Assembly (NCBI RefSeq): GCF_006345805.1
Contig: NW_021831661.1
Span: forward strand, 1-34,948
DNA from: Octopus sinensis
Lineage: Eukaryota
Length of the DNA: 34,948 bases
Direction: 5' to 3'
Shown here: one piece after another, positions 1,330-32,150 of the stretch
How positions within the stretch are numbered: the stretch's first letter is position 1
How the letters are laid out: each line of letters starts with the position of its first letter
The notes under the pieces: model-generated
Databases searched by the model: none
The model's input: only the letters and a program-made list of their open reading frames with translations
What the model was told of the DNA's origin: nothing
Made by a program: the position numbers and the translations under genes

Positions 1330-1457
1330 ATAATCTCTGAGGAAACCTGGAGATATATACAAGTTCCTCATTTTCATCTGCCTATTACCTAATACACTTG
1401 ATTAATAAAGGCAGAATGAGATACTTTTATCTATGGGCTGAAACAGCTGCAAGTTAT
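1330..1457 (+). ncRNA. Degenerate minimal hammerhead ribozyme (PLE pLTR type)
   Basis: CTGAGGA 1337-1343, long imperfect stem II, GAAA 1440-1443, palindromic CAGCTG 1444-1449, CA instead of UH, weak stem I. Confidence 0.5.
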
Positions 1458-1557
1458 TTTACTAATTTATATTCATGTTGTTCAATAATTACTTGTATCC
1501 TTTTCTTATATGCTATATGTAAGTATGTTATTATAATTATGTATGTTATTATAATTA

Positions 1558-4500
1558 GTCTAGTGTTCGATTCGACACTCTTCCAGCAGCTCCTGCAACC
1601 AAGCTGGTGCCAAACGTAATGCTCTGCACTCCTTTGGACTATGTCAGCAAGGTCGAGAGAGGAATCCTGACGATTGGGCAACCAGGATTTTCATATTTCT
1701 AGCCCAGGCCTGCGCAAAACTGGAGAGGACACATCAGTGCTGCTGTAAAAAGTGGCAGAAATAACACGGGAGGTAACAGTCACGAGTGATAAGTCCATTC
1801 AGATTGGCGTAAGATATGGAAGCCACGGGACACCTCTGACGGTGGGGTGGACCTCCATGTCCCATTGGTTAGCTACTGCCTACCTGAAGCTAGGCAGCTC
1901 CCAGTTAATAAGTTGCTGACTCGCCACAGGCCGCCTGTTTCATTGGGTTCTTGGAGCTAAGAGTTTCACTTGAAAAACGGCCTGCAACCTCTGCACCAGG
2001 CAAACAACTAAAAGACAAGAAACCACCAGTCCTGCGGTTAGCAAGCTGGAATGTCAGGACCATGTGCCCTGGAATATCTGATGACCTACTCAGGGTTGAA
2101 GACACAAGAAAGACAGCCATCATTGACCGTGAACTAGAGAGGCTTAACATAGACATTGCTGGGTTGCAGGAGCCAAGACTCCCCTCAAACGGGAAAGTCA
2201 AAGAACAGGATTTCACCTTCTACTGAGCATCTATGCTCCCACTCTCTACGGGTCAGAGGAGACCAAGGACCAGTTCTACAAAGATCTCAACTGTGTCATT
2301 TAAAATATACCAACAAATGAAAACATCTACCTTCTGGGAGATTTTAACGCTCGCGTTGGATCTGACCATGATTCGTGGCCCATTTGTGTTGGATACACTG
2401 ATATTGGCAACATGAATGACAATGGTCAGAGACTACTAGAAATTTGCACATACCAAAACCTGTGCATCACCAACACATTCTTCGCCAACAAGACATCCCA
2501 CAAGGCATCTTGGAGACATTCAAGATCTCACCACTGGCATCAGCTGAATCTCATCATCGCACGAAGATCCTTTCTGAATTCTGTTCAACTGACCCGTAGT
2601 TACCACAGCGCAGATTGTGTCACACAGATCACTCACTAATTAGAAGGAGGGTGAGGATCCTGCCTAAAAAAGTCCATCACTCCAAGAAAATGTGCCGACC
2701 ACGCATTAACACTGCCAGAACCTCGGACCCTACACTGCGAAAATGTTTTGCTGTTTCTATCAAGGTTGCCCTCAGTAGCTGCCCAACCTCCTCTGCTGAA
2801 AGTAGGTGGAATTATATCAGGAAAGCTTTGTATACCACATCAATAGATACTTTCGGCATGAGAGAAAGGCAAAATCCAGATTAGTTCAGTGCTGGGCTCT
2901 CAGCTGGGAACAGTTATCGAAGCAAAGCGTGCAGCTCTGATGCAATACAAGAGTGATTCTTCTACAAAATCACTCGAAGAACTTAGAAAGGCAAGAAATA
3001 TAACCCAACTGACAGCCAGACACTGTGCAAATAGGTATTGGCAGAAAATCTGTCAGAGTATCCAGTCAGCTACTGACAGTGGCGATACCTGGTTTGAAGA
3101 AGGCCCTCGGTCCATCCGCAACTAGTCAGCCCCTCTGAAATCAACTACTGGAGATCTCATCAAGGACCAAAGGAAGCAAATGGATAGATGGGTTGAGTAC
3201 TACCAGGATCTCTACTCACGGGAGACCACGGTAGCTGAGACTGCAATCGAGAGTGTCAAGATCTTGCAAGTCATGTGCGAACTTGACAGTCCGCCATCTA
3301 TAGAAGAGCTATAGACGCCCTAGCAAGGGTATTGACACCTTAGCAAGTAGCAAGTCTCCGGGAAATGACGACATCCTCTCAGAGATCATCAAAGCCGGAA
3401 AAACCACAATCCTGCTTCGGTTACCCTCAGAGCTTCTGTGTCTGTGCTGGGAAGACGGTACAGTCCCTCCGGATATGCGGGATGCTAACATCCTTACGCT
3501 TTACAAAAACAAATGTGACTGTGGTGATTGTAACAATTACCATGGAATATCTCTTCTACGCACTGTTGGAAAGACTTTTGCTCGTGTTATCCTGTCCAGG
3601 CTACAACTCCTTGCTTCTCGAATTTATCCGAAATCGCAGTGTGGCTTTAGAAGAAGCATATCAACTATTGAAATGATATTCTCCATACGCCAACTCCAGA
3701 AGTCCAGAGAGCAGAAAATGCCATTATATAAGGCCTTCATTGATCTGACAATGGACTTTGACTTTGTAAGTAGAAAAGGCCTCTTCATCCTGCTCCTAAA
3801 AATCGGATGTCCACCAAAGCTGCTGAGGATTATCAAATCTTTCCATGATGATATGCAAGGCACCACACAGCACAATGGATCATCAGCCGCCTTCCAAATA
3901 AAAAACGGGGTAAAGCAAGGTTGTGTCCTTTTTCCTACATTATTTGGCACCTTCTCGATGCTGCTCTCACATGCCTTTCAGACATCAGATGATGGAGTGT
4001 TTCTGCAGAGTAGAAGTGACGGGAAGCTGTTCAATCTCTCGCGCCTGCGTGGCAAGACTAAAATCAGAAACGTCCTGATCAGGGAGATGCTATTTGCTGA
4101 TGATGCCGCTCTAGTATCACACACAGAAGAAGCATGTAACGACTTTGGCTTAGCTATCAGCCTTAAGAAGATCAACATCATGGGTCAGGCTACATTGGAC
4201 ATCACAAACATATATATTGGAGATTACAGATTACAGGAGGGGGAGAAGTTTACCTATCTCGGATCTACCGTCACCTACAACCTATCCCTTGACGCTGAGC
4301 TCAATATATGCATTGGCGAGGCAGCTTCTGTGATGGCCCAACTCTCCAAACGGGCATGGGACAACAATAAGCTGACCAAGAACACAAGAATGAAGATTTA
4401 ACAGGCATATGTACTTAGCCCTCTACTATATGAAAGTGAGACTTGGACGACATACACACGCCAAGAGCGTCGCCTAAATATCTTTCAGATGCGCTGCCTC

Positions 4501-5074
4501 CGGAAAATCCGTTGCATCAAATGGCAGAATTATGTTCCCAACAAAGATGTCCTCAGGCAAGCAGGAATACCAAGCATGTTTGCACTCCTCACACAAAGAC
4601 GTATGAGATGTCTTGGAAATGTTAGCCGTATGGAAGATGGCAGAATCCCCAAGGACATACTCTACGGAGAGCTTGCTAGGGGCACTAGGTCTGTGGGAAG
4701 ACCGTTCTTACGATTCAAGGATGATTACCAAAGGGACATGAAAGCCTACAACATCAATATTAGCTACTGGGAAGCAGTTGCCAGCAACCGTGGACTTTGG
4801 CGACGTACCGTAAAAGAGGGAACACAAAGGAGTGACATAGAGAGAAAGGAGAAATGGAAAGACAAGAAAAGACGTCAACAAGAAACTATGACATTACAAC
4901 CACTCAGGAAAAGTCTTAGCTACATCTGCGGTGCCTGCCGGAGGGAGTGTCTGTCCAGGATAGGACTACACAGCCACAGCAGGAGATGTATTAGGATATG
5001 AAATGTAAAAGCCGGACTAGATTATTTTATGCGCAACTCCATTGTCTCCCGACACAAAAATGATGCCAACAACA
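1558..5074 (+). mobile_element. RTE-clade LINE, near full length, inactivated
   Basis: APE endonuclease motifs (LASWNVRTM, IAGLQE, GDFNARVG), RT (GVKQGCVL, MLFADDAAL), C-terminal zinc finger (CGACRRECLSRIGLHSH), short (CAA)n tail, and 10-bp TSD ATTATAATTA at 1548-1557 and 5075-5084. Confidence 0.93.
1951..5001 (+). pseudogene. RTE APE-RT polyprotein, disrupted by stops, frameshifts and a deletion near 2226
   Basis: ORF pieces 1951-2226, 2412-2639, 2615-2884, 2889-3125, 3475-4401 and 4489-5001 are collinear parts of one RTE ORF. Confidence 0.9.
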
Positions 5075-5167
5075 ATTATAATTATCAGTGTAACAAATAA
5101 ATAAGTAAATATTTTAATGTCCTAAAGTTGATGAACCAACTATTGTTCTCCTCCATTTTCTTACTTG

Positions 5168-5212
<45 letters not shown>

Positions 5213-5318
5213 TGTATGTATATATATATGAGGGGGAAAACTATAGGAAAATTTGTTGTTCACAATGCACCACAATTTGAAAAACTTGTAATTGGTTTTA
5301 AATAATCTTATTTACATA

Positions 5319-5423
5319 CATACCAAACTAGTTTCAACAATATTTTTGATTTATTAATGGCAAAAATTTAAAATAATGAACGAGAAAAAACATGTTTCAA
5401 TGTTTACAAGTTTCAGTGATATG
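5319..5423 (-). ncRNA. Degenerate hammerhead-like motif near the 3' end of an unclassified minus-strand element (~5230-6120)
   Basis: Minus strand: CATATCA-CTGAAAC...TGTT-GAAA-CTAG-TT-TGGTATG. 7-bp stem I and palindromic helix III, but damaged core. Confidence 0.4.
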
Positions 5424-6130
5424 AAATATGATTTAAATATTCATAACATTCAATAATATAAAAGATGTGGAACATCTTGTTTGAATGCATAAAATTCAAA
5501 AGATCGATTAGAAATGTGTATCATCAGAGTTTCGGCCATACAGGGTAAAGAAGGAGGAAAACAAGGGAGAAACTGAGATAGTGGAAAAAAGGAAATCTTT
5601 GAGCACAATCCCTGTGAATCATTTTCCGTCGTGTGCAAGGACTTTGCTTGTAACGGCGTTTTTTGGAATTGGATGTATTTACAATTTTTTCCGTGAACCG
5701 ATCTGATATTTGCTTCATTGAATTATAGGTGACGTCTAATTTTTCTGGTGGGCAAGGTTGTGGTTCTGCCTGATGGGCTTCCCTGTGGGGACGGGCATAA
5801 GCCATTCCAGTTGGTTTGATTGTCTTAAAGCGTTCGGTTCTGATCAGATGTAAAATTTCAATGATTTATGTGACATCAGCAACTGGTGTTTATATGGTGG
5901 TATTGTATGGCGATTTGGATTTGCTATTTCGAAACCCGCGTTGAAGACTGGTACTAAATATTTTTGAATTATGTCTGTTGTATCTCGTTTTTTATTGTGG
6001 AAAAATTGTTTCTTTTCCTTTTTCTGTTTAGTGTTTAAACAGAGGTGAATAAGAGAGAATGAATTAAACGATATTCTTTATTCTATAACACTACCATTGT
6101 ATATTGTTCAGATGATGTAATTAATATATA

Positions 6131-6417
6131 GCGCATGACTCAGTGGTTAGAGCGTGGAGCTTACAATCGTGAGGTTGTGGGTTCGAATCCCAACCCAGGC
6201 TGTGTGTTGTGTTCTTGAGCAAGACAGGTGTAGAAATGAATTGCGACGTCACAGGTTCCAAGTTGTATCGGCAGTTGCCTCTCCCTTATATAGAGATGTG
6301 AGGCCGGTATGCATGGGCGACTGCTGATCTTCCATAAACAAACTTGCCCGGACTTGTGCCTGGGAGGGTAACTTTCTAGGTGCAATCCCACGGTCAGTCA
6401 TGACCGACGGGGGTCTC
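6131..6417 (+). mobile_element. tRNA-derived SINE (family B)
   Basis: A-box-like TGACTCAGTGG and B-box GGTTCGAATCC in a tRNA-like head, followed by a non-tRNA body (TGTTCTTGAGCAAGAC...). Confidence 0.8.
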
Positions 6418-6661
6418 AGCTCAATCCTTACCATCTATCGTAGGTGTAAAATATGCTTTTAGGTGAGTATTTCAATAAGTTCTACGTTAGATCATACTAT
6501 CATTTCACAGACACATGTTCCACCTTTGATGAATGGCAGTGATCACACAAGATATTAACCATATCATCTCATCAATGAACTACGGGTGTGATGTATAGAC
6601 ACAATTGCAGGGATATGGAATAAAGAATGTCGTTGAAACCATTCGCTTAGTCCTCATCAGC

Positions 6662-6835
6662 TATGTATGTATGTATGTATGTATGTATGTATGTATGTAT
6701 GTATGTATGTATGTATGTATGTATGTATGAATGTATGTATGTATGTATGTATGTATGTATGTATGTATGTATGTGTGTATGAATGTATGTATGTATGTAT
6801 GTATGTATGTATGTATGTATGTATGTATGTATGTG
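6662..6835. repeat. (ATGT)n microsatellite
   Basis: Directly visible tetranucleotide array. Confidence 0.97.
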
Positions 6836-6850
6836 TGTGCCTCTCTTTCC

Positions 6851-7070
6851 TCTTTTACTTGTTTCAGCAACTCGACTGCTTTGCAGCAGGAGAATCACCT
6901 TGAAGTATGAAATTCGAACCCTGGTACTTACCCTGTCGACCGCTTATGCGAAATCCCTAACTGACGAGGAATTAAACGCACTAACCTAAGTTGTGAAGAA
7001 GTAGTGAGTACAAACATAGAGACTAAGTCACACTCACACACACTCGCACACATATGTATATGATATAATT
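6851..7070 (-). mobile_element. Old 3' fragment of SINE family A
   Basis: CTTTTACTTGTTTCAG... aligns loosely with 721-920. Confidence 0.55.
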
Positions 7071-7084
7071 ACATATATATATGA

Positions 7085-7530
7085 AAGAGTTAGGACTCTA
7101 GTCCATGGAGCGAAAACCGGAGAGGTATGTAGTGATATGTGTGGAAGTTACTAGGGAAGCTGGTATCAAACTTTGGAATTCAGAATTATACCAGACCTCG
7201 AATTGGACGTCACTGCACTGTTCCAAAAGTCCCGGGGTCTCATTTAATATTAGGAGAATGTACTGCAATAGTTTGAGGTTCAAGTGCTCACCGATTTTTC
7301 ACGCCTTGCCAACACATCTGAGGAGTGGGTGTAGATGTTACAACATACAACTTGACCTCTTGCTATCCAAGTGAACCAATATCAGGGCAGGAAACTCAAA
7401 AGACTGCAGCGGTAGTGAACTCCGGCCAATCTCATAAACTCGGCCAGTCATTCGAAAATTATTTACATTGGTGGGGCCCCAGCATCGAAACAGCCTCAGG
7501 GTTAAAACATATAAAAGAATAAAAGAATAT
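7085..7530 (+). mobile_element. CR1/L2-type LINE, short 3' fragment
   Basis: Translates to LGL*SMERKPERYVVIC...NSLRFKCSPIFHALP...LDLLL, resembling the C-terminus of the CR1 ORF at 26873-27412. Ends in (TAAAAGAA)2. Confidence 0.75.
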
Positions 7531-7536
7531 ATATAT

Positions 7537-8257
7537 ATATGAATGAAGGTTTGAAAATGCAATTTTAAAAGATGTTTATTTACTTGACCGGTTTCACTCT
7601 TTTAGAAAAAGATTGTCAGAAGTAACATGTAAAAGCTTTGTTGTGTTTGGTACTGATTGTCTACAATACATACACACATTCCTTGATAAAGCATTGAACA
7701 TTTAGGTTGTATATAAATGAACAATGAGGGAGATATGTTTAGTTTGAACTGACCTGATTCACCATACTATCGTAAAAGCTTTTACGATAATATGGTGAAT
7801 CAGGTCAGTTCAAGCTAAACATAGCTCCCTCATTGTACATTTATATACTACCAAAATGTAACCTTTTTGAACTTATAATTTTCTGTGTGTATATATACAG
7901 ATACAATACCAATTTTCCTCTGAACTTTTTAATAATTCTTTCTGTAAGCTGCTTTTAACATTCTATTTTTATTATCAAAGAATGTATATATGTATTGTAA
8001 TCTTTTGTACCCAATATTTTAATGAACTTGTCAAATTTCTTTTATATTTTCACAAGATTTTCCCTTGTAACTGTGTTTAACATATTCTTATTATTATCAA
8101 AGTATGTATATATGTATTGTAATATTTTGTGACAACCAGTACCTAACACAACAAAGATTTTACATGTTGCTTTTGACAATTCTTTCTAAATAAGTGAAAC
8201 CGGTCAAGTAAATAAAGATTTTTTAACATTGCATTTTCAAACCTTTTTTCATATATA
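7537..8257. repeat. Fold-back palindromic element with a degenerate hammerhead in each arm
   Basis: Zero-spacer centre AAAAG|CTTTT at 7778/7779. Inner arms ~7701-7778 and 7779-7856 differ at about 6 positions. Outer arms ~7537-7690 match ~8090-8257. The right arm contains ~120-bp tandem copies. Hammerhead motifs at 7580-7625 (-) and 8167-8211 (+). Confidence 0.85.
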
Positions 8258-8281
8258 TTTCCACTCGTGCGGTACTTTACA

Positions 8282-8328
8282 ACTCGAAACATTACGTACG
8301 ACAGTGGTTCGTACGTAATGTTTCGAGT
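8282..8328. repeat. Perfect 20-bp inverted repeat with 7-nt loop
   Basis: ACTCGAAACATTACGTACGA-CAGTGGT-TCGTACGTAATGTTTCGAGT. Confidence 0.95.
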
Positions 8329-8790
8329 GTATGGGCGCACGAATAAATCACAGCTTAATCAAGACCATGTTCATAATTTTTTCCGCCATCCTCGGTATTG
8401 TGCATTGGGAGCTTTTTCAGGGAGGACGTTTGGGGAAAATGACCGGATCTGGATTCGCGAAATATTGAATTCTTCACGACAACAATGCACCTATCACCTC
8501 AATCGTAAGTTTCTTGCCAAAAACAACATGCTATCGCATCCGCACATGCCCTATTCGCGTGATTTACCACCTGCTGACTTGCATCCGTTCCTCAAGATGA
8601 CAAATCAGCTCAGAGGTCGAGATCAAGAGCAAACTTAACATCATTGTCGAAATCAAGAGGTCCTCGACTCGCCTATGGAAAACTACGTCCAGGCCGGATT
8701 TCAAAAGTGTCAGAAAAGCTGGGGCAGTTGTATTATTGCTCAGGTAACATAAGTTACTTTTATTAAACATAGCTCGTTCAGAAAATTTAT
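8309..8790 (+). mobile_element. Mariner transposon deletion derivative (copy 1)
   Basis: Fragments translate to IKTMFIIFF, HDNNAP, FLAKNNM and PHMPYSRDLPPAD (mariner YSPDLAP motif). Confidence 0.8.
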
Positions 8791-8796
8791 ATATAC

Positions 8797-8928
8797 GACG
8801 GGTTTCCTTCAGTTACCGTGTACCCAATTAATTAACATACACGGGTTTGTTCGGTTGGAGAGCAGAGTACACGCAGAAGGACTGAATACAGAAGCAAAAT
8901 TCTTATCACACAGCAATGCCAACGCCTA
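8797..8928 (-). mobile_element. Internally deleted 5' part of SINE family A
   Basis: GACGGGTTTCCTTCAGTTACCG...CACGCAGAAGGACTGAA...ACGCCTA is homologous to 1020-1173. Confidence 0.65.
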
Positions 8929-9201
8929 AGCATATGCACACACAACCACACACACACACACACACACATACACAATACACACACACACGTATGACGGAAA
9001 TGGAAAATGGATTTTACGAGATTCGTTAATCATTACTGCCGTTTCAACCCGTCTTCAATCGGCCCCTCACGGATGAGATAATGGTCGAGTGGCCGCGGTG
9101 CATCTTTCTTTGCAGATGTTTCTCATCAGTTGATATTTCAAAAAGTACTCTGCTCAATAAGCTCGGTTTCACTTGGTTCGATTTTAAAGTATTTCGTTAC
9201 T

Positions 9202-11240: not shown

Positions 11241-11717
11241 TTGTTGTATTTAGGAATGGTCATTTTGTCAGTTTAGCCTATAAAACACACGCACTATATA
11301 TTTGGTATTACTTTGCTTCAGCGTTATTTAATTTTACATTAATCTTAATCTTATTTCGGCCAGAGTTCTTTCGTCACACACCTGTGACCTCATCAGTGGT
11401 CCTTTGCTTTCTTCTTTCATGTTTGTGTGTCTCTCCTTACTAACGGTCAGCCATTTTGTATTTTGTATTTCTATTGTATGTGTTTTCATTTGCGCATTGA
11501 TATACCTCTATATTTGTCTATGTTTAGTTAGAGTGTGTGTGTGTCGGGTGGAGGGAATGTCTGTAATATTTATATCTACTGTTTATATACGTTCGAAAGA
11601 ACTCTAGCCGAAATAAGATTAAGATTAACGTCAAAAATAAATAACACTGAAGCAAAGTAACACCAAATATATAGTGCGTGTGTTTTTATTGACTAAACTG
11701 GCTATATGACCATTCCT

Positions 11718-12475: not shown

Positions 12476-12899
12476 GAGAAAAAGAGGGAGAACGAAAAAG
12501 AACGAAAGAGAAATATCCAAGACCTGAGGTAGAAGGAACGTGACTGTAATGCTTCACGTGATTAGTTGAATGGAATGAGAGACCAAGAGAAAGAAAAAGG
12601 AATGAGAAAACGAAAGTAAGTTGAAGAGTGGAGCAGAAAAAGAGGGAGAGGGAGAAAAAGGAGAGGTAAAAAACCGAGGGAGAAAAAGAGGGAGAACGAA
12701 AAAGAACGAAAGAGAAATATCCAAGACCTGAGGTAGAAGGAACGTGACTGTAATGCTTCACGTGATTAGTTGAATGGAATGAGAGACCAAGAGAAAGAAA
12801 AAGGAATGAGAAAACGAAAGTAAGTTGAAGAGTGGAGCAGAAAAAGAGGGAGAGGGAGAAAAGGGAGAGGTAAAAAACCGAGGGAGAAAAAGAGGGAGA
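12476..12899. repeat. Tandem duplication of a 204-bp purine-rich unit (2.1 copies)
   Basis: Units start at 12476, 12680 and 12884 and are nearly identical. Confidence 0.95.
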
Positions 12900-17400: not shown

Positions 17401-18372
17401 ACTTTGCGAGCGGAAAATGAAATTAAAAGCAAATTGTATAACTCAATGCGTGGACTGCTATTTACGTTACAGGACATAAAATTACAATTGGGAAACGATA
17501 TATTCATTAAAAAATGAAAGAAATGCAGAAGTGTTAAAGAGATGAAAAATATTCGAGCCTATCACAAGGTGTGACAATGTGCTGATGTATGCACAAAGAG
17601 TCGTGGTGCCAACCACACTACAAAAGCAATTACTAAAGGAATTTTATATTGTGTCAAAGGGATTTCGATAATGAAATCGTTAATGAGAAGTTAGGTATAC
17701 TGGCCAACAACGGACTGTAACATTGAAGATATAGTGATAGTATGCAATACGCTGTTCTCTAGCTCCAAATACACCCGTCACAAAATGGCACCCGTGGCTA
17801 AAATCACTTAAGGTTTCATATCACTTTGTTGTGGGGGACTGTTTTTCAACGTGGTCTGAAGTGCATAAATGTAGAAAGCCGACATCTCTGGTTACAGAGA
17901 TATTTGATGTTTGTTAGAATAATCAGATCCATCTTTGATCAGCCGATACCGAGTGAAAATATTAAAAAAGGAACAATATTTCAAAATTCTTCAAGTTAGG
18001 AGACAAAGTTTTTTAGAAAACCTATACATAGAGTAAATAAGGCTGGGAGGATGGTACAATTATTAAATAAATTGCAAGAATGATATTCCTGGTAAAAGGT
18101 GAAACAAATTTCGAACATAAAAGACTTATTAACCAACTTAAAACCTGATTCAAGGAAAAATCAGAGAAAAGAAGTGAATTTCTCATGAAAGTATTGCACG
18201 ACACGTTTGAGGTACCAACACAGAAACAATTTGTAATTACACGTTCTAGCACCAGAAAACGAAACGAATGGAACACAAGAATTGAGCCCTAAGCATAAGA
18301 GATATTAAAACTCAGAGCGATTTTTATTCTCAAGTGGAGAATTTAGGGGAGACTAATTCTATAAAGGGGAGA

Positions 18373-18580
18373 TGCTGTGGAAAGATTCTGACAACCTTCC
18401 AAGTGACTAAAAGTGATCTGACACATTTCCATTACATGGAGAACTGTCTAGTCGTAAGGAATTGATTGTGAACAATTGATTGGTAAGCATTTCCCTATGA
18501 TCCGTTGGCAGAGAGCGTCGAGTCTCATGTAATAGTGATCGTATTGCGTCGTGTAAATAGCTTCGTTAAATTATATATTC
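18373..18580 (+). repeat. 3' LTR
   Basis: Follows the PPT and is homologous to 14307-14468. Its 3' end is uncertain and merges into Helitron sequence. Confidence 0.8.
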
Positions 18581-18685
18581 AGACTTCCACACTGCCATAT
18601 GCTCGTAAACAAAGTGAAGATCAGAGATGATATAGACAGAATGGTAACAGCAGAAATTTATGATTCAAATGATGGTCCCAAATGA
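18581..18685 (+). mobile_element. Helitron Rep (HUH) fragment
   Basis: Translates RLPHCHMLVNKVKIRDDIDRMVTAEIYDSNDGPK*, matching Rep motif 2 (GLPHxH) and the downstream DIDxxIxAEIPD motif. Confidence 0.75.
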
Positions 18686-18688: not shown

Positions 18689-20090
18689 CTTAGAGTTACT
18701 TGACATAAACTTAATTTTATTGGAATTGACTTCAGATACAATAACCTTGTTATTGATATTTCTAGAGGGTTGGATGTTATTAGCTAAATTAATGTTAGTA
18801 TTAGTAAGTGTATACAAAGCGAATGAAGGCGGATAACCCTTATTTAATCCCCTATTATCGATCTAAAAGTAAATATAACACCTTCAACGTAATTACACTA
18901 TGAATACAAGTAAATATATTTGGTTAATAATTCCTTACGGAGACAAATTAAATCTAATCTCCCACTGCTGTTTCGTCAAGCTATTGCTAGGAATTTTCCA
19001 AACAATTCTAGATATTACTCTATAATCAATTCACATAAGGTTAGGATAGGTTTTTCAAACACAAATAATCACTTGCAAATTATATCTTCTCATAATAACA
19101 AACTGTTAAATATTAATACACTTACTAATACTAACATTAATTTAGCTAATAACATCCAACCCTCTAGAAATATCAATAACAAGGTTATTGTATCTAAAGT
19201 CAATTCCAATAAAATTAAGTTTATGTCAAGTAACTCTAAGATTAAAAATTCTATATACCAGTGTATAATCAGTACTCGTAATAAAGTACGATTTTACATT
19301 GGAAGCACATCGTTAGAGTTATCTAAAAGAATTTCTATCCATTACTCAACGTTTAGGGATAGAAATAAACGGAATAGTACCGGTCTCAGCAAACTGATTT
19401 GGGATTTAAAAGACCACAATGAACAATTTCATTTAGAATGATTGATCCTCTCAATTTCGATACCATATAACAAAGGCAAGAAATTCTGTCTTCTCTGCAA
19501 TTCTGAGCTATTTTTCATTATTTTTTCTAAAAATACTCTAGTAAACACGGTTATAGAACGAGCATGCAGATGTAAGCATTGGCAAAAACATACATTTAGT
19601 GCATATAAGTAGTCTCTATCATTATATATAATTTAAATTTTAATTTCCTTTATCTTTAACATTCGCTATTAATATCCCTACTCTTTCTGTTAGCTACTTA
19701 TGACGTTATATCATATAGCGTTTTTTTAAACAATGTTAATAGCGTTCTGTCTATCGCTATAACAAATCCATCATGTTTTGCTAAAATGTCTTATTGACGA
19801 GTTTCGTTTTTTTCACTTTCCTGAGGAGAAGATTGCATTGTTTATACCATTTATTCTTTTGAATAGTATCAGTGGAATTTTCGAAACATGTGTCGAAAGT
19901 AAAAATATTTGATTACACATGCGTTAACTCCATTTTTTATTCATATTATTCAAAATATTCAACGTAAACATGAAGTTTCTACCTTTATAAACAAGGAGTT
20001 ACAACACCTTTACTTGTGAGATTTTTGCTGCCCTGGTAACTATTTATTTATTTTCTCCGTGTTAATTGTTAACAAGGTAAAATTACACTC

Positions 20091-20095: not shown

Positions 20096-20146
<51 letters not shown>

Positions 20147-20188: not shown

Positions 20189-20274
20189 TTGGCTGATGAG
20201 TACTCTGCATCTTAAATCTGTTTTAATACTTACAACATTTAATAAAATGATGTAGTACGAAACGATCGTACCAA
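20189..20274 (+). ncRNA. Minimal type-I hammerhead ribozyme, intact core
   Basis: TTGG-CTGATGA-GTACT...AGTAC-GAAA-CGATCG-TA^CCAA. Palindromic helix III, GUA triplet (cut after 20270). Confidence 0.85.
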
Positions 20275-20608: not shown

Positions 20609-20710
20609 TGTGCCTGATGGGATCCAGACTGATCGATGCAGCACAACACGTTGAACAGAGTCCCACACATAAAGGACAATAGCAAGACGGGTCGAAACGA
20701 TCGTTGTACA
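20609..20710 (+). ncRNA. Minimal hammerhead with one core substitution (A9G)
   Basis: TGTGC-CTGATGG-GATCC...GGGTC-GAAA-CGATCG-TT-GTACA. Confidence 0.65.
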
Positions 20711-20881: not shown

Positions 20882-20959
20882 CTCTTTTTGTTCCACGTCT
20901 TCACGTTGTTGTTGTTTTTGTGCTTTCTTGTTTGGATTAACTATATATATATATATATG

Positions 20960-22730
20960 TAGGTGGGCTGGCCTGTGAAACCCATCGACAAAGCAATTTT
21001 CTAGACATCTTACTGAAACCCTTGCTGAAATACATCAAATTTTTCATTAGGGAAAAAACAATTAATGAAGAGGCAATATTGGTTTCCCTCGATGTTATCA
21101 ATCTTTACACCAACATCTCCCATGACTTTGGAAAAAAGCAATTAAATTCTGGTTGGAAAAGTACTCCCGGAATGCATAAGCTAGATGTTTATAATGAAAT
21201 CCTGAACATTTATACTTCAGAACAATTATTTCCTATTTGATGACACATACTATCATCAGAAATGCGGAAGTGCGATGGGGACGAAAGCAGCTCCGGTTCT
21301 TGCGAACCTAATAATGGGTTATTTTGAATTCACCTTATATGAAGAATCACTTCAGAAATATTGTTAACCATTTTACCTCTACATAAGAGAAAATTGGAAG
21401 AGATACCAAGATGACTGCTTTATCATCTGGAGGGAGAACATCGACAAACTCTTGGATTTCAAATCAACACTAAATGACATAAATAGTAACATTCAATTCA
21501 CAATGGAATATAACAAAGAATATCTCCCATTTTTAGACGTCATGATAAGAAAAGTTAACAATGAAATCATAACTGACATTTATTATAAACCAACTGATTC
21601 AAAACTATATCTTCTGAATTAGACACGAAAACACTAAGAACAAGAAAACATAACACCACAACTCAACTCAAAACATTACTATTTATATCAACACACAACC
21701 ACAGAAACAGTAAAGCATTCAACACTATTTGCAAATTCTTCCTTTGCTTAATAGAGATCCAAAAATGAACGACATCCTGAAAACAGAAACTCATCAAATG
21801 CAAACAGCAAGACAAATCGCTAAAGAGACTACTAACAAATGCAAAGCTTTACACAACAACCACGAAACCACCGGTTGAAAAATGTGGACGCCCAACTGTG
21901 GAAACTGCCCCAACCTGCTTCAAGGCTCGGATTTCCTTTTCAAACAAGGAGAGAGGTTCAAAATTAAAACTAGTTTCACTTGTGCCTCTGAGAACCTAAT
22001 TTATTTAATAACATGCTCGGTTTGCGGACACCACTATAGTGGACAAACGAGTATGACCTTGAGAAAGAGAACCACTCAACATAAAAATCAAATCCGTTTC
22101 CCGGAATACTGAAAATTCCTCTCAGTGAACATATAGAAAAATGTGCTGGTAACATCAAACCAAATTTCACTGTCTTACCTTTTTACCAGTGAAAAGATGC
22201 AATCTCTCAACTAGAGCGTTTAGATAAAGAAACTTTTTTCATTGAAAAATACAAAACTCATCTTAATATCCACGCATAACCAACGTGTATCTTTTTACAC
22301 ATTTCAATTTATGATAACATTACAGTACATAAATCCCCTACTAAACAAGGTTTTTGAAACTTGTGTCTGTCAGTACGCATATATAAATCCCCACCTATTA
22401 CCTAAAGCTGAACTGTTATCTCCCTTACCTACAACAATAACAATAATAACGGCAACCAATTACCGCCCTTTATTTACCTACTTGTGAAGTCATTCTCTCG
22501 TGAATTTCTTCACACACAATATGGACAAAATTTCTTCTTAAAAAAATATATATTCAAATAAGTAAAACATAATATCATGAATAGCGATATCGAAACCGGT
22601 CGAAATATTAAAAATTATATTAAAACTATGTAAGTGTTCGTATTTTCCTTTTTTAATTTCTCAAATAAATTACAACTCACAACGTGGGGATAAGCGGTAT
22701 TCCTCTTTTCTGTTTCTACAACTACTAATA
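20960..22730 (+). mobile_element. Penelope-like element (Neptune-like), decayed RT plus GIY-YIG
   Basis: RT: LVSLDVINLYTNI, CGSAMGTKAAPVLANLIMG, WKRYQDDCFIIW, LPFLDV, YYKPTD. CGRPxCxxC-type Cys linker (frameshifted). EN: NLIYLITCSVCGHHYSGQT. Partial hammerhead GAAACCGGTC at 22592-22601. Confidence 0.9.
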
Positions 22731-23114: not shown

Positions 23115-23381
23115 GAATGAAATTAAGATCCAAGACTGTGGAAGATTTCAGGACATTTCTAGAGAGAATACTTTACAGCTGTTTCCGGGATATTTATGTA
23201 TCTCTTCATCGGAGACGGTGCGAGAAAATGATTAAGCAATAGATATTCTAGAATAACTATTGGTTAACCATTCTCTCACACCGTCATCGATGAAAGAATA
23301 TATAAATATCCATGGAACCGCTAAAAGACCTCTCTATAAATGCTCTGAAATCTTTCACAGCATTGGACTTTTATTTCATTC
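23115..23381. repeat. Old fold-back palindrome with a degenerate hammerhead in each arm
   Basis: Zero-spacer centre TATTCT|AGAATA at 23249/23250 with diverged arms. Minus strand of the left arm reads CCGATGA...GAAA-CAGCTG-TA; the right arm reads TCGATGA...GAAC-CGC-TA. Confidence 0.75.
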
Positions 23382-25323: not shown

Positions 25324-25934
25324 CTGACTCGTGGCCGTGGTACGTAAAATACTCCAATGTGACCGTACGACAGGCACCCATGCCAACCCCCTTTGCTTGT
25401 GAAGACATGTTGGGGCAAGCGAAATCGAAATAGAATTGAACCAGCCAGGATCCCTGGTCTGGTGGTACGTAAAAAGCACTATCCGACTCGTGGCCGTGGC
25501 ACGTAAAATACTCCAATGCGACCGTACGACAGGCACCCATGCCAACCCCCTTTGCTTGTGAAGACATGTTGGGGCAAGCGAAATCGAAATCGAATTGAAC
25601 CAGCCAGGATCCCTGGTCTGGTGGTACGTAAAAGGCACTATCCGACTCGTGGCCGATGCCAGCACCGCTTCGACTGGCTTCCGTGACGGTGGCACATAAA
25701 ATACACCAATCTGACCGTGGCCGTTGCCAGCCTCGCCTGGCACCTGTGCAGGTGGCACGTAAAAAGCACCCACTACACTCACGGAGTGGTTGGCGTTAGG
25801 AAGGGCATCCAGCTGTAGAAACATTGCCAGATTAGACTGGAGCCTGGTGCAGCCTTCTGGCTTCCCAGAACCCCGGTCGAACCGTCCAACCCATGCTAGC
25901 ATGGAGAACGGACGTTAAACGATGATGATGATGA
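25324..25934 (+). mobile_element. Non-autonomous retroposon (family C) with internal 159-bp tandem duplication and (GAT)n tail
   Basis: Units start at 25326, 25485 and 25644. Conserved block GGAGTGGTTGGCGTTAGGAAGGGCATCCAGCTGTAGAAAC. 3' end CATGCTAGCATGG...(GAT)n. A second copy lies at 29584-30368. Confidence 0.8.
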
Positions 25935-26761: not shown

Positions 26762-29096
26762 AAAACTTAGATAAAACTTAGATATGTTTCGACCAGAGAT
26801 TGGTCCAGCCATGTCTAACTTAATAGCACCACCTGATAGGATTATTCGAATCCTGTTTAAGTCAAGTTTTGTTCAAGTAGTGAGTTCTTGTTGGGTGAGT
26901 TGTATCCAGTTTTGTTCAAGTAGTGAGTTCTTGTTGGGTGAGTTGTATCCAATTATGGGTGGCTTATCTGGTATTCTTTGAAGGAATCTATCCAGACTCT
27001 GTTTGAAGTTGATGGGATCCTTTTCCTCTTTGATCTCCCTCGGGACAATGTTAAATAGGGCAGGGCCTGTTGAGGAAAAGAAATTATGTTGCAGTGTACA
27101 TGTATGTTGTGATCTTGAATTTGGCAGGGGACGTATAGCCCGTGGTCCAAGTCTCGGATGGACCTTGAAGCTAATGTTTAGGTCGTTTGGGCAAAGTTGG
27201 CGGTATATTTTCCACATCGTACAAATGATGTACCGCTCACGGCGACGCTGGAGGGAGTAAAGTTTCAAGGCTTTAAGGCGATCCCAATAGTCCGAGCAGC
27301 ATGCCTTCAATTTGTTTAGTGAGAGCCCTCTGGGGTGACTCAATTCTGGAGATGTTGTGTCTTGTGCGAGGAGACCACAGTGGGCAGCAGTATTCAAGGT
27401 GTGGCCGTACAAAGGATGAAAAAAGTGGTATGATGAACACTTGTTCTCTGGACCGGAAAGTCCTTAAGATCCAGGAACTCATCCTACGAGCTGTATCGAC
27501 CTTCTTGTTGATGTGTGCACTCCAACTGAGATCGTCATCAACAATTACACACCAGGTCTCTGATATTGTTAGAGGCTGTGAGCGGTTCCCCTGAAGGAAG
27601 AGAGTATGGTTGTTTTAGTGAGGAGTTTCTTCCAAAATGCATCAGCTCAAATTTTCCCTCATTCAGTTGCATTTTGTTTCTGTCTGCCCATTGACTCACA
27701 GCATATAGGTCAGACTGGAGTTGAGTTCGGTCTGCTTCTTCATTGACGATTTGCTGGAGCTTAGTGTCATCAGCGAATATTTTCACTTTGCAGTGATGTA
27801 CGACACTGGAAAGGTCGTTTACATAATTATGAAGAGTAGCGGACCCAAAACAGTTCCCTGGGGAACACCGCTGGTGACTTTTGCTCGGTTTGAGTGGACT
27901 CCATCAACTACAACATGTTGTGTTCTATTCGCTAGGAAATACTGAATCCAGTGTAGAACTTTTCCACGGATTCCACATTTGCCAATTTTGAGAGTAGGAT
28001 GTTATGGTCTACCCTGTCGAACGCTTTACTGAAGTCAAGGTATATGACGTCAGAGTTCGAACCTGTTCCCAAGGCTTTGAGTACATCTTCAATGTGGTGT
28101 AAGAGCTGTGTTAGACAGTCCCTGCCACAGCGAAGCCATGCTGATTTGAATTTAGGAGTTTGTGGGTCTCCAGGAAGCCAGCTATCCTTGATCTTAACAC
28201 TCTTCAAACACTTTAATGATGGGGAGGTGAGTGAGATTGGGCGATAGTTGACTGCGAGGGATCTGTTTCCCTGTTTGAAAACCGGGATGACCGACTGGAA
28301 TAGAACATTTTCGGTATATAACCTGCGTCTAACGAGTTTCCTCCAGAGGTTGGTCAGAGGGACTGCAAGTTGATCTACATTCCTTCAGAGACTGGCGGGA
28401 AATCTATCAGGGCCTACAGCAGAGTAATGTTTGACCTCATTTATTGCTGCTACGATGTCGGTGGCAGTGAAGGTTATGTCTGCGATTTTGTGTTGGGAGT
28501 CAGCTTCGTTCGTTTCCCTCACATCACAATATCAGTGGGAACACTGAAGACAGAGCAATATTGTTTCTGCAGTATTTCTGCCATTTCTTTAGCATCGTGT
28601 TGGGGAATGCCGTTTCATCAATCAATGGCCCAATAGGTGAGACAAGTGGTTCTATGCTTATTTGCATAAGAATAGAACACTTTTGGGTTCTGTTTGATGT
28701 TTTTGATTACCCATTGTTCCTCCACAGCTCTTTGATTTTCAATGGAGGTTTTCATGTTAGTCTGCAGATGAAGTTTTTCCAGCTCTAGTCTTTTCATTGT
28801 TGTTGAATGTGGATGTTGCGTGTGGGAATATTTTAATTGGTTGATTTTTTTGTTGAGTCTTTTGATGCGCCTGATGAGTGTTTTTTTCTTTTTAGGGAGC
28901 CGGTTTCTGTTTTGTTAGTAGATTTCTTGGGAGCGTGTTTAGAGCATGTGTCGGTGACAAGGTTTCAAAGTGCTGCCACGCTGTCTCAATATGAGGGGAA
29001 TTGAGAGTAAAAGACCAGTCGATGGAAGACAGATCCTTTCTGATTGTTCCCCAGTCCGCTTTGTGGAAATTTATGTTGTCAAATGGGTGCCATGGA

Positions 29097-29236: not shown

Positions 29237-29293
29237 AATTAAGAGTTTAATATAAACGTCTTCATTTATGTTGTAAATTTATTTATGCTATTT

Positions 29294-29403
29294 AGACCTG
29301 AAGAGTAGCTATGTATCATTGGATCGAAGAAATATTAATTTTTCAGATAATCAATTTTGATAATGTCGATATTACTATATCGTCACGAAATGCGCCTCGT
29401 CGA
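29294..29403 (+). ncRNA. Minimal hammerhead ribozyme, core intact, stems eroded
   Basis: AGAC-CTGAAGA-GT...AC-GAAA-TGCGCC-TC-GTC, inside an AT-rich unit bounded by (TA)n (~29235-29530). Confidence 0.6.
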
Positions 29404-29525: not shown

Positions 29526-29579
<54 letters not shown>

Positions 29580-29583
29580 TATA

Positions 29584-30368
29584 TCATCATCATCATCATC
29601 ATCATCACATTTAGCGTCCGTTTTCCATGCTAGCATGGGTTGGACGGTTCAACTGGGGTCTGGGGAGCCCGAAGGCTGCACAGGCCAGTCAGATCTGGCA
29701 GTGTTTCTACAGCTGGATCCCTTCCTAACGCCAACCACTCCGAGAGTGTAGTGGGTGATTTTATGTGCCACCGACACAGGTGCCAGACGAGGCTGCGAAC
29801 GGCCACGCTCGGATGGTGTTTTTATGTGCCACCGACACAGGTGCCAGACGAGGCTGGCAGACGGCCACGCTCGGATGGTGTTTTTATGTGCCACCGACAC
29901 AGGTGCCAGACGAGGCTGGCGAACGGCCACGCTGGATGGTGTTTTTATGTGCCACCGACACAGGTGCCAGACGAGGCTGGCAGACGGCCACGCTCGGATG
30001 GTGTTTTTATGTGCCACCGACACAGGTGCCAGACGAGGCTGGCGGACGGCCACGATCGGATGGTGTTTGTTACGTCCCCAAAGCACGGAGGCCAGTCTAT
30101 GCGGTACTGGCTACGGCCCGTTCGGATGATTTTCTTGTGTGCCACCGGCACTGGTACCACAAAGATGCAAATTCCATTTATGTTCATCTATTTTGATTTG
30201 TTTTGATTTGATTTGATTTTCACTTGCCTCAACAGGTCTTCACAAGTGTCACAAGAAGGAAGGTATGCACAGGTGGACTGACTACGTCCCAGGTAGGGGC
30301 CACGGGTTATGGCCTGACTAGTCTTGCCGGTCTTCGGATGGTGTTTTTATGTGCCACCGACACAGATG
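29584..30368 (-). mobile_element. Family C retroposon with internal ~61-bp minisatellite
   Basis: Reverse-complement match to 25680-25934 including the (GAT)n tail. Five ~60-62-bp units at 29759-30066. Confidence 0.82.
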
Positions 30369-30396
30369 CATACATATATGTGTGTGTGTAAACACA

Positions 30397-30454
<58 letters not shown>

Positions 30455-30601
30455 TTGAGTAGTTGAATGAATTATCTTATTAAGGATAATTCGAAAGATA
30501 ACCGATACCAGGGTAGCAAATTCACATCAGAAAGAACACGGTTGAAGCTACGTCCGTAGGGTATAGACTACGTGCTTTCGTGCTGAAGTTGTATGTTTAT
30601 T

Positions 30602-30724
30602 TTAAAAATATATAAGTATATGGAAGAATGGAGTTGAACGACTGGTTAACAAGTATCCTTTATTCTCGACGTATGTTGAACCTGTCGTTCAACTCCATTC
30701 TTTCATATACTTATATATTTTTAA
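30602..30724. repeat. Hairpin with ~50-bp arms and ~22-nt spacer
   Basis: Perfect core GAATGGAGTTGAACGAC/GTCGTTCAACTCCATTC, extending outward to TTAAAAATATATAAGTATATG/CATATACTTATATATTTTTAA. Confidence 0.9.
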
Positions 30725-30961
30725 TATATGTATATATATATATACATGCACACGTATGTCCATGCATACCAGTATATATCATATATATATACTCACACAC
30801 ATACATATATATATAGAGAGAATATTATCTTCCAATTATTCAAGTCATTAATCAGCGACCATCCTGGCAACCCTCCTAGAAGTTATTTTATTCGAATATA
30901 TTCTCCACAGTATTTAAATTTTGAAAGTCTGTTACTTATTATATCGTTTCCTTTGAGGAAC

Positions 30962-31205
30962 TGTTAAGTTACGGGGACGGAATAGCTCCAGAGACTAATA
31001 CAACCACAATGATTAAAGCTCACACACACACATACACCCATGTATATATGTAAATACATAAGACAGGCCTCTTTCAGTTTCTGACAACAAAATCGACTCA
31101 CGGCACGAGTATATAGAATTGGACACTTGGTGAAGGCAGCACGTATTAACACTGACCCCTACTCCACGTGGTTTGAAATCAAGCTTCTTATCACGCAGAC
31201 ACGAC
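30962..31205 (-). mobile_element. Highly decayed SINE family A copy
   Basis: TAAGTTACGGGGAC, CTCTTTCAGTTTC, GACACTTG and AAGCTTCTTATCAC blocks occur in the same order as in 845-1173. Confidence 0.55.
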
Positions 31206-31257
31206 TTTGACTTTATAAACACATACACTTATATAGATATACACATAAATATATTTA

Positions 31258-31307
<50 letters not shown>

Positions 31308-31692
31308 ATACATATATATATATGTATTGTACGCTCAAGTGGTCACACCTGTTTTATCCTGCTTTAAACACCTACACATTGGAATTACTACTTCCTGGAC
31401 TTTCTGCACCTCTCCGATTCTACATATCAGCACTCTACCCGATTGGCCCTGAATATACTTATGGATTTCACGTGATTCATCTGTTAATGAAAAATCCCTC
31501 CAATACACTACAACTTTTAATCCTTTTTGAACTTCTGTTTATTTCCTCATTTTCTTTATTTTGAAGATCGTAAGCTCGAAACTTAAAGCCCTTTCTCACT
31601 TTTCGGAGTGTCAAACTAATACACACATTGTTCATATATCTCTGTTCGTCTTTTGTTTTTCTGTAAATTTCATCTTTGTTTATATATGTATA

Positions 31693-31698
31693 TAGATA

Positions 31699-31774
<76 letters not shown>

Positions 31775-31802
31775 GTAGGTAGATAGATAGATAGATAGAT
31801 AT

Positions 31803-31855
<53 letters not shown>

Positions 31856-31874
31856 AAGATAGGTAGATAGATAT

Positions 31875-31939
<65 letters not shown>

Positions 31940-31940
31940 A
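31693..31940. repeat. (GATA)n microsatellite
   Basis: Directly visible. Confidence 0.97.
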
Positions 31941-32080
31941 TAAACACAGTGTACATTTAAACACATAAGAAGTATCCGTCATAGGATTCCCTGAACGCTA
32001 GAAGGAACAGCTAAAATCCAAACCGCTATTAGGGATAATAATCGAAGGGAATGAAAATTATAAAACATTTACCTCTATCT

Positions 32081-32150
32081 CCTAGACAACGGATTCAAAC
32101 ATTCTTTTAGCAAATAAAATTATATGCTAGGCGAAGTCTTCATCAGCAGG
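32081..32150 (-). ncRNA. Degenerate minimal hammerhead
   Basis: Minus strand: CCTG-CTGATGA-AGACTTC...GAATGTTT-GAAT-CCGTTG-TC-TAGG. Stems I and II pair; GAAA has become GAAT. Confidence 0.55.

Follow-up and report, generated by a model that had tools for sequence, protein, structure and literature searches.

In a 34,948-nt stretch of the Octopus sinensis genome (hereafter the window), 12 repeat families of high copy number carry hammerhead ribozyme motifs at their 3′ ends. We traced seven of these families to the coding sequence of Penelope-like elements (PLEs). We hold with considerable confidence that the short units bearing these motifs are likely 5′-truncated by-products of PLE insertion and that their ribozymes are predicted to cleave only as dimers. 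Judged from sequence, the motifs are real hammerhead-ribozyme sequences, most of them decayed in the window.

Hammerhead motifs in the window

Motifs are present at the originally predicted positions, which mark the ends of stem I arms. A strict descriptor (core YYGANRA, helix II of up to 140 nt, GAAA, a self-complementary helix III, UH and stem I) recovered three intact motifs (11396 on the minus strand, 19821 and 20193 on the plus strand), and a relaxed one, with one core mismatch allowed and lower stem thresholds, recovered five. The shuffling control that had been proposed bears these counts out: local dinucleotide shuffles gave 0 matches in 15 of 15 at the strict setting and a mean of 0.05 (maximum 1, n = 20) at the relaxed setting. 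Three of the 14 window copies are intact canonical hammerheads, and each of the other 11 is missing something its family has: a core base, the cleavage triplet or a stem. Rfam reports no hammerhead in the window (0 of 31 matches at E ≤ 1).

The view of the window as a dense field of ribozymes is overstated. Relaxed matches occur at ∼4 times the random-genome density (5 in the 35-kb window vs. 14 in 400 kb; Poisson p = 0.008, uncorrected and for a window that had been picked rather than drawn at random), intact cores number 3 vs. 12 in 400 kb (p = 0.09), and (TA)8+ tracts are at the genome average (5.7 vs. 6.1 per 10 kb). Genome-wide, the core C3UGANG8A...GAAA...UH has 54,677 matches against 6,450 for the reversed pattern, with some sites counted twice, and the genome holds roughly 100,000 hammerhead motifs in all. 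As first noted, the window motifs are mutually unrelated in sequence apart from two mirrored pairs, except that 20193 and 20614 share 12 nt around the palindrome; they form 12 families, and the 11 searched by sequence have 135–2,408 genomic candidates each.

Motif architecture

Type I hammerheads of the PLE pseudo-LTR kind, in many families and with a self-complementary helix III, had been proposed, and this is supported. The accompanying description of them as minimal, with a CUGANGA core, does not fit: many sites have other cores and most are not minimal. Helix II arms of 42–96 nt occur at six sites (1337, 19821, 20193, 20614, 29298, and 32146), which are therefore not minimal. The family 1337 hammerhead (1330..1457, plus; 422 candidates) has a CUGAYGA core, a 96-nt helix II arm and helix III CAGCUG; its window copy has C in place of U16.1 and a weaker base of helix II, and is likely dead. 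Family 19821 (19815..19900, plus; 2,408 candidates) is young (96–98% identity) and intact here, with core CUGAGGA, a 55-nt arm, helix III CAUGUG, and a 3′ end at (TA)n at 20098. Also intact is the family 20193 copy (20189..20274, plus; CUGAUGA, 59-nt arm, helix III CGAUCG; 1,374 candidates). Family 20614 (20609..20710, plus; 73-nt arm; 285 candidates) is old (75–83% identity), and its window copy has A9 changed to G. At 29294..29402 (plus; family 29298, 135 candidates) the core is CUGAAGA, the arm 82 nt, and the family helix III CGCGCG reads UGCGCC in the window. Family 32146 (32081..32150, minus; 1,006 candidates) combines a 42-nt helix II and a family helix III of CCAUGG with the core UUGAUGA (12 of 17 aligned copies), a U3-G8 wobble in most copies; the 3′ half of the window copy has decayed.

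Other families also depart from the CUGANGA core. Family 5335 (5321..5362, minus; helix III CUAG; 779 candidates) has UUGAUAA, a U3-A8 core, in 8 of 12 aligned copies, and its window copy has G5 changed to A. Family 7595/8196 (helix III CCGG, a U-U at the helix II base; 1,580 candidates) has the U3-A8 core UUGACAA in 41 of 43 aligned copies; an inverted 5′-truncated partner with a C3-A8 mismatch (7580..7625, minus) is paired with a direct copy that keeps the U3-A8 core and has a weakened helix II (8167..8211, plus). The U4C core CCGAUGA, found in 25 of 28 aligned copies of family 23185 (23170..23216, minus; helix III CAGCUG, A-G at the helix II base; 1,439 candidates), accompanies a broken stem I in the window copy, which has a decayed mirrored partner at 23283..23327 (plus). 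The very small hammerhead of family 22592 (22572..22606, plus; 1,285 candidates) has an A3-U8 core, AUGAAUA, in 28 of 31 aligned copies, a 2-bp helix II and helix III CCGG, with one change each in helix II and stem I of the window copy. The family 11396 copy (11358..11402, minus; 1,624 candidates) is intact, compact and CUGAUGA, with helix III GAAC and an extra G before a 6-bp helix II.

Only family 31560 has the minimal PLE form (GAAA-CG-UH, compact helix II), the others having 4–6-nt palindromes. Its window copy (31558..31588, plus; family ending GAAA-CG-UA) had been called a scrap, and it is indeed a decayed, true minimal hammerhead; 22592, given the same label, is a complete variant hammerhead. 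We rejected the GAAA at ∼30565 as a hammerhead. It lies in a PLE-like 3′ end (30455..30680, minus) that is truncated inside its family's ribozyme at ∼30662–30678 and retains only the ribozyme's last bases.

In five of six families, the long helix II arms of dispersed copies are more stable on folding than shuffles (z −2.8 to −4.9; −1.8 in the sixth), while the window copies, taken singly, show no such advantage (z +0.7 to −1.8, 13 of 13). In two-strand folding, helix III pairs between strands in 8 of 10 cases, and a full double-hammerhead fold is predicted for two families, A3-U8 and 32146. Any palindrome would be expected to give a negative dimer energy.

Connection to PLE coding sequence

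Two broken PLE ORFs lie in the window. The 3′ part of a Penelope/Poseidon-type ORF (18812..19612, plus) has a GIY-YIG end and a stop at 19610–19612, with a short inverted piece directly upstream; the fragment itself has no Pfam match, and its relative L121 falls in Atlas clusters with HTH_animal/GIY-YIG (score 0.96–0.97). A Neptune-type ORF (20959..22280, plus) with RT, a Cys-rich linker and GIY-YIG matches the intact 781-aa ORF of L290 (tblastn E 1e-65), and Pfam recognizes RVT_1 and GIY-YIG on the intact relatives L288 and L290. The Cys-rich linker we take to be a Neptune motif, and clade names here rest on such motifs, not on a tree. Elsewhere in the genome, intact 775–781-aa RT and GIY-YIG ORFs are followed by the same kinds of hammerhead, with U3-A8 (L287, L290) or U4C (L288) cores. 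With regard to partial tandem source copies (pLTR-ORF-pLTR), long-ORF loci have a hammerhead downstream in five of six cases and upstream in none of six (exact patterns only), and short direct repeats occur at L071/L072 and L119/L120.

The claim that only two motifs are attached to PLE coding sequence is correct for the window, but longer genomic copies raise the total to seven of 12 families. The 22592 hammerhead lies ∼300 nt downstream of the Neptune ORF, and 11 of 30 copies of its family have Neptune coding sequence upstream (L274 not counted). Families 20193, 29298, 23185, 11396, and 5335 look non-coding in the window, and their longer copies run into PLE GIY-YIG coding sequence. The 5335 copy is the 3′ end of a Neptune-type PLE: locus L327, collinear with the window over 435–471 nt upstream, carries RT/EN, and L324 and L333 are also coding. 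Two independent copies of family 11396 (L241, L207) have a GIY-YIG ORF followed by the hammerhead, and a single copy of 23185 (L472), the sole link for that family, has the ORF, a ∼1-kb UTR and then the hammerhead. The 20193 and 29298 copies are 3′ ends of Poseidon-type PLEs, truncated in the former, with 3′ UTRs of roughly 0.9 kb and >1 kb, respectively (29298 ORF-linked copies: L509, L497, and L514). We found no link to a PLE ORF for families 1337, 7595/8196, 31560, and 32146, and no firm one for 20614.

Variation of the 3-8 base pair

The 3-8 pair of the catalytic core is C-G, U-A, A-U, or G-C. U3-A8 has 12,468 pattern matches in the genome and A3-U8, which includes 22592, has 1,539. In a cluster test with positions 3, 4, 7, and 8 unconstrained, the 3-8 pair is Watson-Crick in 18 of 20 multi-copy clusters (12 C-G, 5 U-A, and 1 A-U) and U-G and C-A in one cluster each, with 0 matches in shuffles; G5, A6, A9, and GAAA were fixed by the search, so their presence is not independent evidence. 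Family 22592 has 413 exact motifs (control 0); of the first 100 of 406 matches in this family, 96 are A-U and none C-G. One lineage switches between A-U and G-C with few mismatched intermediates (76 A-U, 19 G-C, and 5 mismatched among the first 100 of 168 matches). The Fisher p of 4e-16 overstates this switch, which may go back to a single ancestral event that was then amplified repeatedly.

A natural A3-U8 or G3-C8 hammerhead was not found in the accessible literature, whose coverage is incomplete, two key papers lying outside it. We tentatively suggest, at slightly less than even confidence, that the PLEs here carry the first natural hammerheads to use all four Watson-Crick 3-8 pairs, with A3-U8 families of a thousand copies and sister families with G3-C8 among ∼100,000 motifs that are for the most part unannotated. 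The swapped-core hammerheads (A-U, G-C, and U-A) are predicted still to cut RNA as dimers.

Anatomy and proposed origin of the repeat units

Each searched family has a fixed 3′ end abutting (TA)n, often with two end points ∼45–100 nt apart, while 5′ ends are ragged and not unit-length, with no fixed 5′ end in the nine families measured. Among 161 dispersed copies (five pairs of loci overlap), 128 have (TA)4 within 300 nt downstream vs. a background of 21%, confirming the suspected link to (TA)n; 45 have an inverted upstream partner and 9 a direct repeat within ∼1.5 kb. Candidate counts fall upstream of the ribozyme in families 20193 (1,374 to 285) and 29298 (135 to 25), as truncation predicts. 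The upstream query finds more candidates than the ribozyme query for 23185 (2,232 vs. 1,439) and 32146 (3,111 vs. 1,006), which misfits simple truncation decay; the queries differ in length and divergence. Variable 5′ truncation, an inverted partner, an optional 3′ tail, and microsatellite targets, all traits of EN+ PLEs, are found here.

Going by PLE biology (PMC11167929, PMC8557442), the endonuclease would nick AT-rich DNA, and reverse transcription would begin downstream of the ribozyme, at either of two sites, and in most cases end early. Most stubs keep the ribozyme because it lies only ∼25–250 nt from the 3′ end. Where source elements are transcribed through tandem copies, two hammerheads could join through their palindromic helix III and cleave after the UH triplet, perhaps with the aid of PLE protein. 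Selection on source elements may have kept the core geometry, leaving the 3-8 pair free to take all four Watson-Crick forms, and solo copies, such as most in the window, likely decay neutrally. For a lizard PLE, insertion in vitro went ahead without ribozyme cleavage, and RNA ends at the cut site were not found (PMC11167929).

Alternative explanations

Some families (7595/8196, 32146, and 1337) could be true non-autonomous PLE derivatives, ORF-less units with their own ribozyme that are mobilized in trans by PLE proteins, which seems to us rather unlikely. Upstream of family 7595/8196, non-coding family sequence extends for at least 1.3 kb without reaching an ORF, 32146 has very abundant upstream sequence with internal repeats, and non-autonomous PLE derivatives are described (PMC8557442; preprint 10.64898/2026.07.22.740005); an Octopus vulgaris annotation gives 893 recently active ‘unclassified SINE’ families (PMC13282606), which might include such putative units. 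However, three equally non-coding-looking families reached an ORF after a ∼1-kb walk upstream, so long UTRs are normal here, and the lack of a fixed 5′ end in all nine families measured argues the same way. It is very improbable that the units are non-LTR retrozymes replicating via small circular RNAs, and for these families that reading is already in large part refuted. In its favor are type I hammerheads whose helix III is weak and a proposed origin of retrozymes from pLTRs (10.64898/2026.07.22.740005), but retrozymes form head-to-tail arrays of 150–450-nt units (PMC7229834), whereas no motif in the window lies within any of its 51 tandem-repeat rows and nearby direct repeats are rare (9 of 161). 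With ragged 5′ ends and seven of 12 families traced to PLE coding sequence, the population of non-autonomous ribozyme retroelements originally suggested is therefore not supported, and solo pLTRs, read as 5′-truncated PLE 3′ ends, are the better of the two alternatives then offered.

Even as PLE ends, the variant-core motifs (A3-U8, G3-C8, U4C, and U3-G8) might be catalytically dead or vestigial and kept only as protein-binding or dimerizing structures, an explanation we find doubtful. PLE hammerheads cleave weakly (PMC4209133), insertion proceeds in vitro without cleavage and a G3-C8 swap is only a partial rescue (PMC11167929), U4C considerably lowers activity in vitro (PMC3088659), and the A3-U8 family, with a helix II of only 2 bp, has no stable monomer fold. 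Against this, the 3-8 pair forms part of the active-site conformation (PMC3884650) and is kept as a Watson-Crick pair across independent families. We consider it extremely unlikely that the window is a ribozyme-rich locus set apart by a function of its own: motif density is ∼4 times the genome average and the block recurs on at least 10 contigs, but 11 of 14 copies are damaged, orientations are mixed, the recurrence reflects segmental duplication (common flanks at 83–100% identity), and random 10-kb stretches reach 2–4 relaxed matches. Truncated PLE 3′ ends remain our preferred explanation for the window motifs.

Comparison with known systems

Lunse et al. (2017) reportedly placed hammerheads in the pseudo-LTRs of Penelope-like elements. 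The PLE hammerheads of Cervera and de la Pena (2014, PMC4209133) likewise have type I topology and a short palindromic helix III; a genome holds many divergent families of them, and most motifs stand singly and come from truncated PLEs. Pairs on opposite strands lie 100–700 bp apart, and an extra base before helix II and the U3-A8 variant (∼1,300 in Schistosoma) are also shared. Unlike them, the octopus has helix II arms of 42–97 nt and families fixed for A3-U8, G3-C8, and U4C cores, and roughly 100,000 motifs vs. about 2,000–9,000 per genome, numbers not strictly comparable because the descriptors differ. EN+ PLEs of the Neptune and Penelope/Poseidon clades (PMC8557442; PMC11167929) similarly have a single ORF with RT and C-terminal GIY-YIG, inverted 5′-truncated partners, an optional 3′ tail, and AT-rich/microsatellite insertion; their tails are 30–40 nt vs. 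∼45–100 nt here, 3′ UTRs of up to at least 1 kb set the octopus elements apart, and in a lizard element the ORF start overlaps the ribozyme. Non-LTR retrozymes (PMC7229834; bioRxiv 10.64898/2026.07.22.740005) are also non-coding units with a type I hammerhead and can reach very high copy numbers (up to 120,000 in axolotl), but the units here lack tandem arrays and a unit length, their partners are inverted rather than direct, and seven of 12 families are continuous with PLE ORFs. U3-A8 covariation, U4C, a U10.1-U11.1 mismatch and a 2-bp helix II are rare natural variants in the accessible part of Perreault et al. (2011, PMC3088659), where A3-U8 and G3-C8 are absent; in the octopus the variants listed there are fixed in families whose copies number from hundreds to thousands. 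Hammerheads of this general kind are known, while core covariation on this scale and long arms of helix II appear undescribed in the accessible literature.

Implications

PLE hammerheads are poor cleavers; in one test cleavage depended on the element's protein, and insertion in vitro did not require the ribozyme. If the motifs cleave, the 3-8 covariation would argue on genetic grounds that PLE source elements depend on an active ribozyme in vivo, even though insertion in vitro can do without it. With its dozens of independent families, its source elements that are young and intact, and its natural compensatory swaps in the active-site pair, this genome offers a ready comparative set for asking what selection maintains. 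Standard CUGANGA descriptors and Rfam overlook a large share of these motifs, as the U3-A8 matches alone indicate, and the motif offers a handle for classing short unclassified repeats as PLE ends.

Hammerhead motifs in the window and in the genome

We identified 14 hammerhead motif copies from 12 families in the window, and one further element end that is truncated within its ribozyme. The original prediction had placed such motifs from the sequence alone, and its positions proved accurate, coinciding with stem I ends. Most copies (11 of 14) are damaged relative to their own family, and in six of the 14 the helix II arm measures 42-96 nt. A short-loop canonical regular expression misses motifs, since most copies have a long helix II arm or a variant core, and only one of its seven window matches is real. 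A descriptor permitting a long helix II found three intact motifs in the window, rising to five once one core mismatch and lower thresholds were permitted. The shuffle control proposed alongside the prediction supports these detections, with no matches in 15 of 15 shuffles and a maximum of one in 20 shuffles. In dispersed copies, the long helix II arms form long imperfect hairpins; z-scores lie between -2.8 and -4.9 for five of the six families, with -1.8 for the remaining one. When 13 motifs were folded as single strands, no z-score was significant, and none of the 31 matches at E<=1 in an Rfam scan of the window belongs to a hammerhead family. We rejected a hammerhead reading of the GAAA near 30565 after family comparison. 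The sequence at 31560 was rejected as coding sequence of a Penelope-like element (PLE) and aligns with a minimal-hammerhead family.

Forty random 10-kb genome stretches yielded 12 intact-core and 14-19 relaxed matches (shuffles: 0). Extrapolation from this small sample gives about 30-48 motifs per Mb and a genome total of roughly 100,000. Whole-genome pattern counts are of the same order: 54,677 matches for the canonical short-helix pattern (6,450 for the control, some sites being counted twice), 12,468 for the U3-A8 pattern (control, 236) and 1,539 for the A3-U8 pattern (control, 164). The description of the window as a dense field is overstated: motif density is about fourfold above the genome average (p=0.008, uncorrected for how the window was chosen; p=0.09 for intact cores). 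The density of (TA)n in the window is average.

The window is one entire contig of 34,948 bases (G000:C8132) in the 2.72-Gb genome and consists mainly of microsatellites and broken mobile elements; we saw no host gene within it. In every family search, near-identical matches turned up on C29 and on further small contigs. Window copies occur on contigs C8948, C8530, C4530, C4529, C3035, C1519, C6116, C13339 and C9938 of the same genome, and on C29 at 2.2-3.0 Mb and 9.1 Mb, with 83-100% identity at the sites searched. Since these matches share flanks, sequence comparison indicates that the window belongs to a large segmental duplication present in many copies. Such duplicates were excluded from the measurements of family anatomy and are still included in the alignments for families 1337, 7595, 23185 and 20193 (families are named by window position).

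Among other elements, a broken LINE with endonuclease-like and reverse transcriptase (RT) segments occupies 1900-5001 on the plus strand (Pfam RVT_1, E 3e-16); we take it to be RTE-like by its motifs. The ORF list contains two candidate broken LINE-like RT regions on the minus strand (26870-28914 and 33000-34700) and, together with the sequence, points to candidate decayed RT and RNase H-like segments of LTR-retrotransposon type on the plus strand (16460-18600). Tandem repeats of 62, 159 and 204 nt (29754-30068, 25326-25655 and 12476-12899, respectively) contain no hammerheads, and the first two sit in a common SINE-like repeat found also at two other loci (L263 and L264). A plus-strand stretch at 6135-6230, in which tRNA-like promoter boxes can be read, is likely the head of a tRNA-derived SINE.

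Core variants and the 3-8 base pair

The base pair between core positions 3 and 8 covaries. When all 520 loci were scanned without bias, 20 multi-copy clusters emerged, comprising 12 with C-G, five with U-A and one each with A-U, U-G and C-A (shuffles: 0); U4C occurs in four of the 20, and 12 of 18 singletons have a Watson-Crick 3-8 pair. The motif at 22592, which the original prediction had set aside as a scrap, is in fact a complete hammerhead with a 5-bp stem I, an AUGAAUA core, a 2-bp helix II and a palindromic helix III. Its core is found in 28 of 31 aligned family copies, and the genome contains 413 exact motifs of this family. With positions 3 and 8 left free, the first 100 of 406 matches included 96 A-U and no C-G pairs. 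Two-strand folding of a natural copy predicts a double-hammerhead fold.

Counts show no enrichment of the G3-C8 pattern (187 matches vs. 389 for the reversed control). The case for it rests on recurring family motifs in the match list and on one lineage in which the first 100 of 168 matches divide into 76 A-U, 19 G-C and five mismatched; this A-U/G-C split may reflect a single ancestral switch. At the level of pattern, stems aside, eight near-identical G3-C8-type matches lie within 330 kb at G000:C4:78.7-79.06 Mb, likely through local duplication. In the 11396 family (L230-L255), A9 is changed to C (CUGAUGC) in 10 of 33 copies, apparently a subfamily that spread with the altered core base.

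Earlier reports already describe natural U3-A8 hammerheads (PMC3088659; PMC4209133), as well as U4C, a U-U base in helix II and a 2-bp helix II in nature (PMC3088659), and present G3-C8 as an engineered swap with partial rescue (PMC11167929; PMC3884650). We found no report of a natural A3-U8 or G3-C8 hammerhead in the main texts of the literature searched, and no study there of these motifs in octopus or other cephalopods. Natural A3-U8 and G3-C8 cores may be new.

Repeat anatomy and links to Penelope-like elements

Searches with eleven families returned 135 to 2,408 candidates per family, as lower bounds. The nine families measured share fixed 3' ends, often at two points separated by about 45-100 nt, and ragged 5' ends. 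A (TA)4 tract follows within 300 nt in 128 of the 161 dispersed copies, against 21% in the background; an inverted partner lies upstream of 45 copies, and a direct repeat accompanies nine. Inverted 5'-truncated copies, an optional tail, and a bias towards microsatellites are PLE features described by Craig et al. (PMC8557442); Frangieh et al. (PMC11167929) attribute the tail to two reverse-transcription start sites. A near-perfect 86-nt hairpin at 7736-7821, with a mir-944-like score below threshold, was rejected as a microRNA, being the point where the inverted copy of the 7595/8196 family meets the direct one.

The original prediction had suggested that the motifs might represent a population of non-autonomous ribozyme retroelements. 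The ragged 5' ends and the continuity with PLE ORFs in seven of 12 families leave this mostly unsupported. Cervera and de la Pena (PMC4209133) already ascribed most single motifs to truncated PLEs. Broken PLE ORFs precede 19821 and 22592 in the window. Walking upstream joined 20193 and 29298 to Poseidon-type GIY-YIG ends, and linked 5335 to Neptune-type RT/endonuclease through three copies, 11396 to PLE coding sequence through two (L241 and L207) and 23185 through one (L472). No ORF link was made for the other five families (1337, 7595/8196, 20614, 31560 and 32146); among these, the upstream walk covered 7595/8196, where it crossed at least 1.3 kb of non-coding family sequence and reached no ORF. 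Upstream queries for 23185 and 32146 gave more candidates than ribozyme queries, which counts against a simple truncation picture. BLASTX matches upstream of four loci (L075, L052, L158 and L220) lie a long way from the ribozyme or outside family sequence, and we did not accept them as links.

Potential source elements are also encoded in this genome. Among the 5,029 candidates from a search with a GIY-YIG profile are uninterrupted ORFs 775-883 aa long; both long ORFs tested matched RVT_1 and GIY-YIG. At five of six long-ORF loci a hammerhead lies 0.5-1.15 kb downstream of the ORF, with U3-A8, U4C or canonical cores. Two GIY-YIG matches (L265 and L266) are presumably exons of a host SLX1-type nuclease and not PLEs. 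The upstream region of the 7595/8196 family in one copy (L447, G000:C13339:2082-2631) has an internal segment of about 123 nt in five tandem repeats, the ribozyme not included.

Proposed mechanism and significance

We propose that the PLE endonuclease would nick (TA)n and that reverse transcription would begin a little downstream of the ribozyme and in most cases abort. The stubs left behind would carry the ribozyme and would sometimes have an inverted partner. Cleavage is predicted to need two hammerheads that pair through helix III, such as tandem transcripts of source elements would offer, and may be assisted by protein; inverted partners lie on opposite strands and could not provide a single transcript with its second ribozyme. 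Assembled contigs from four sequencing runs cover 18700-20090, with no common start or end among those listed; such contigs are silent on transcript ends, strand and level.

The hammerhead motifs are a real feature of this genome and belong to a known kind of system, for which cleavage is predicted. What may be new is the covariation of the core pair, the long helix II arms and the scale, and these are worth a bench test.
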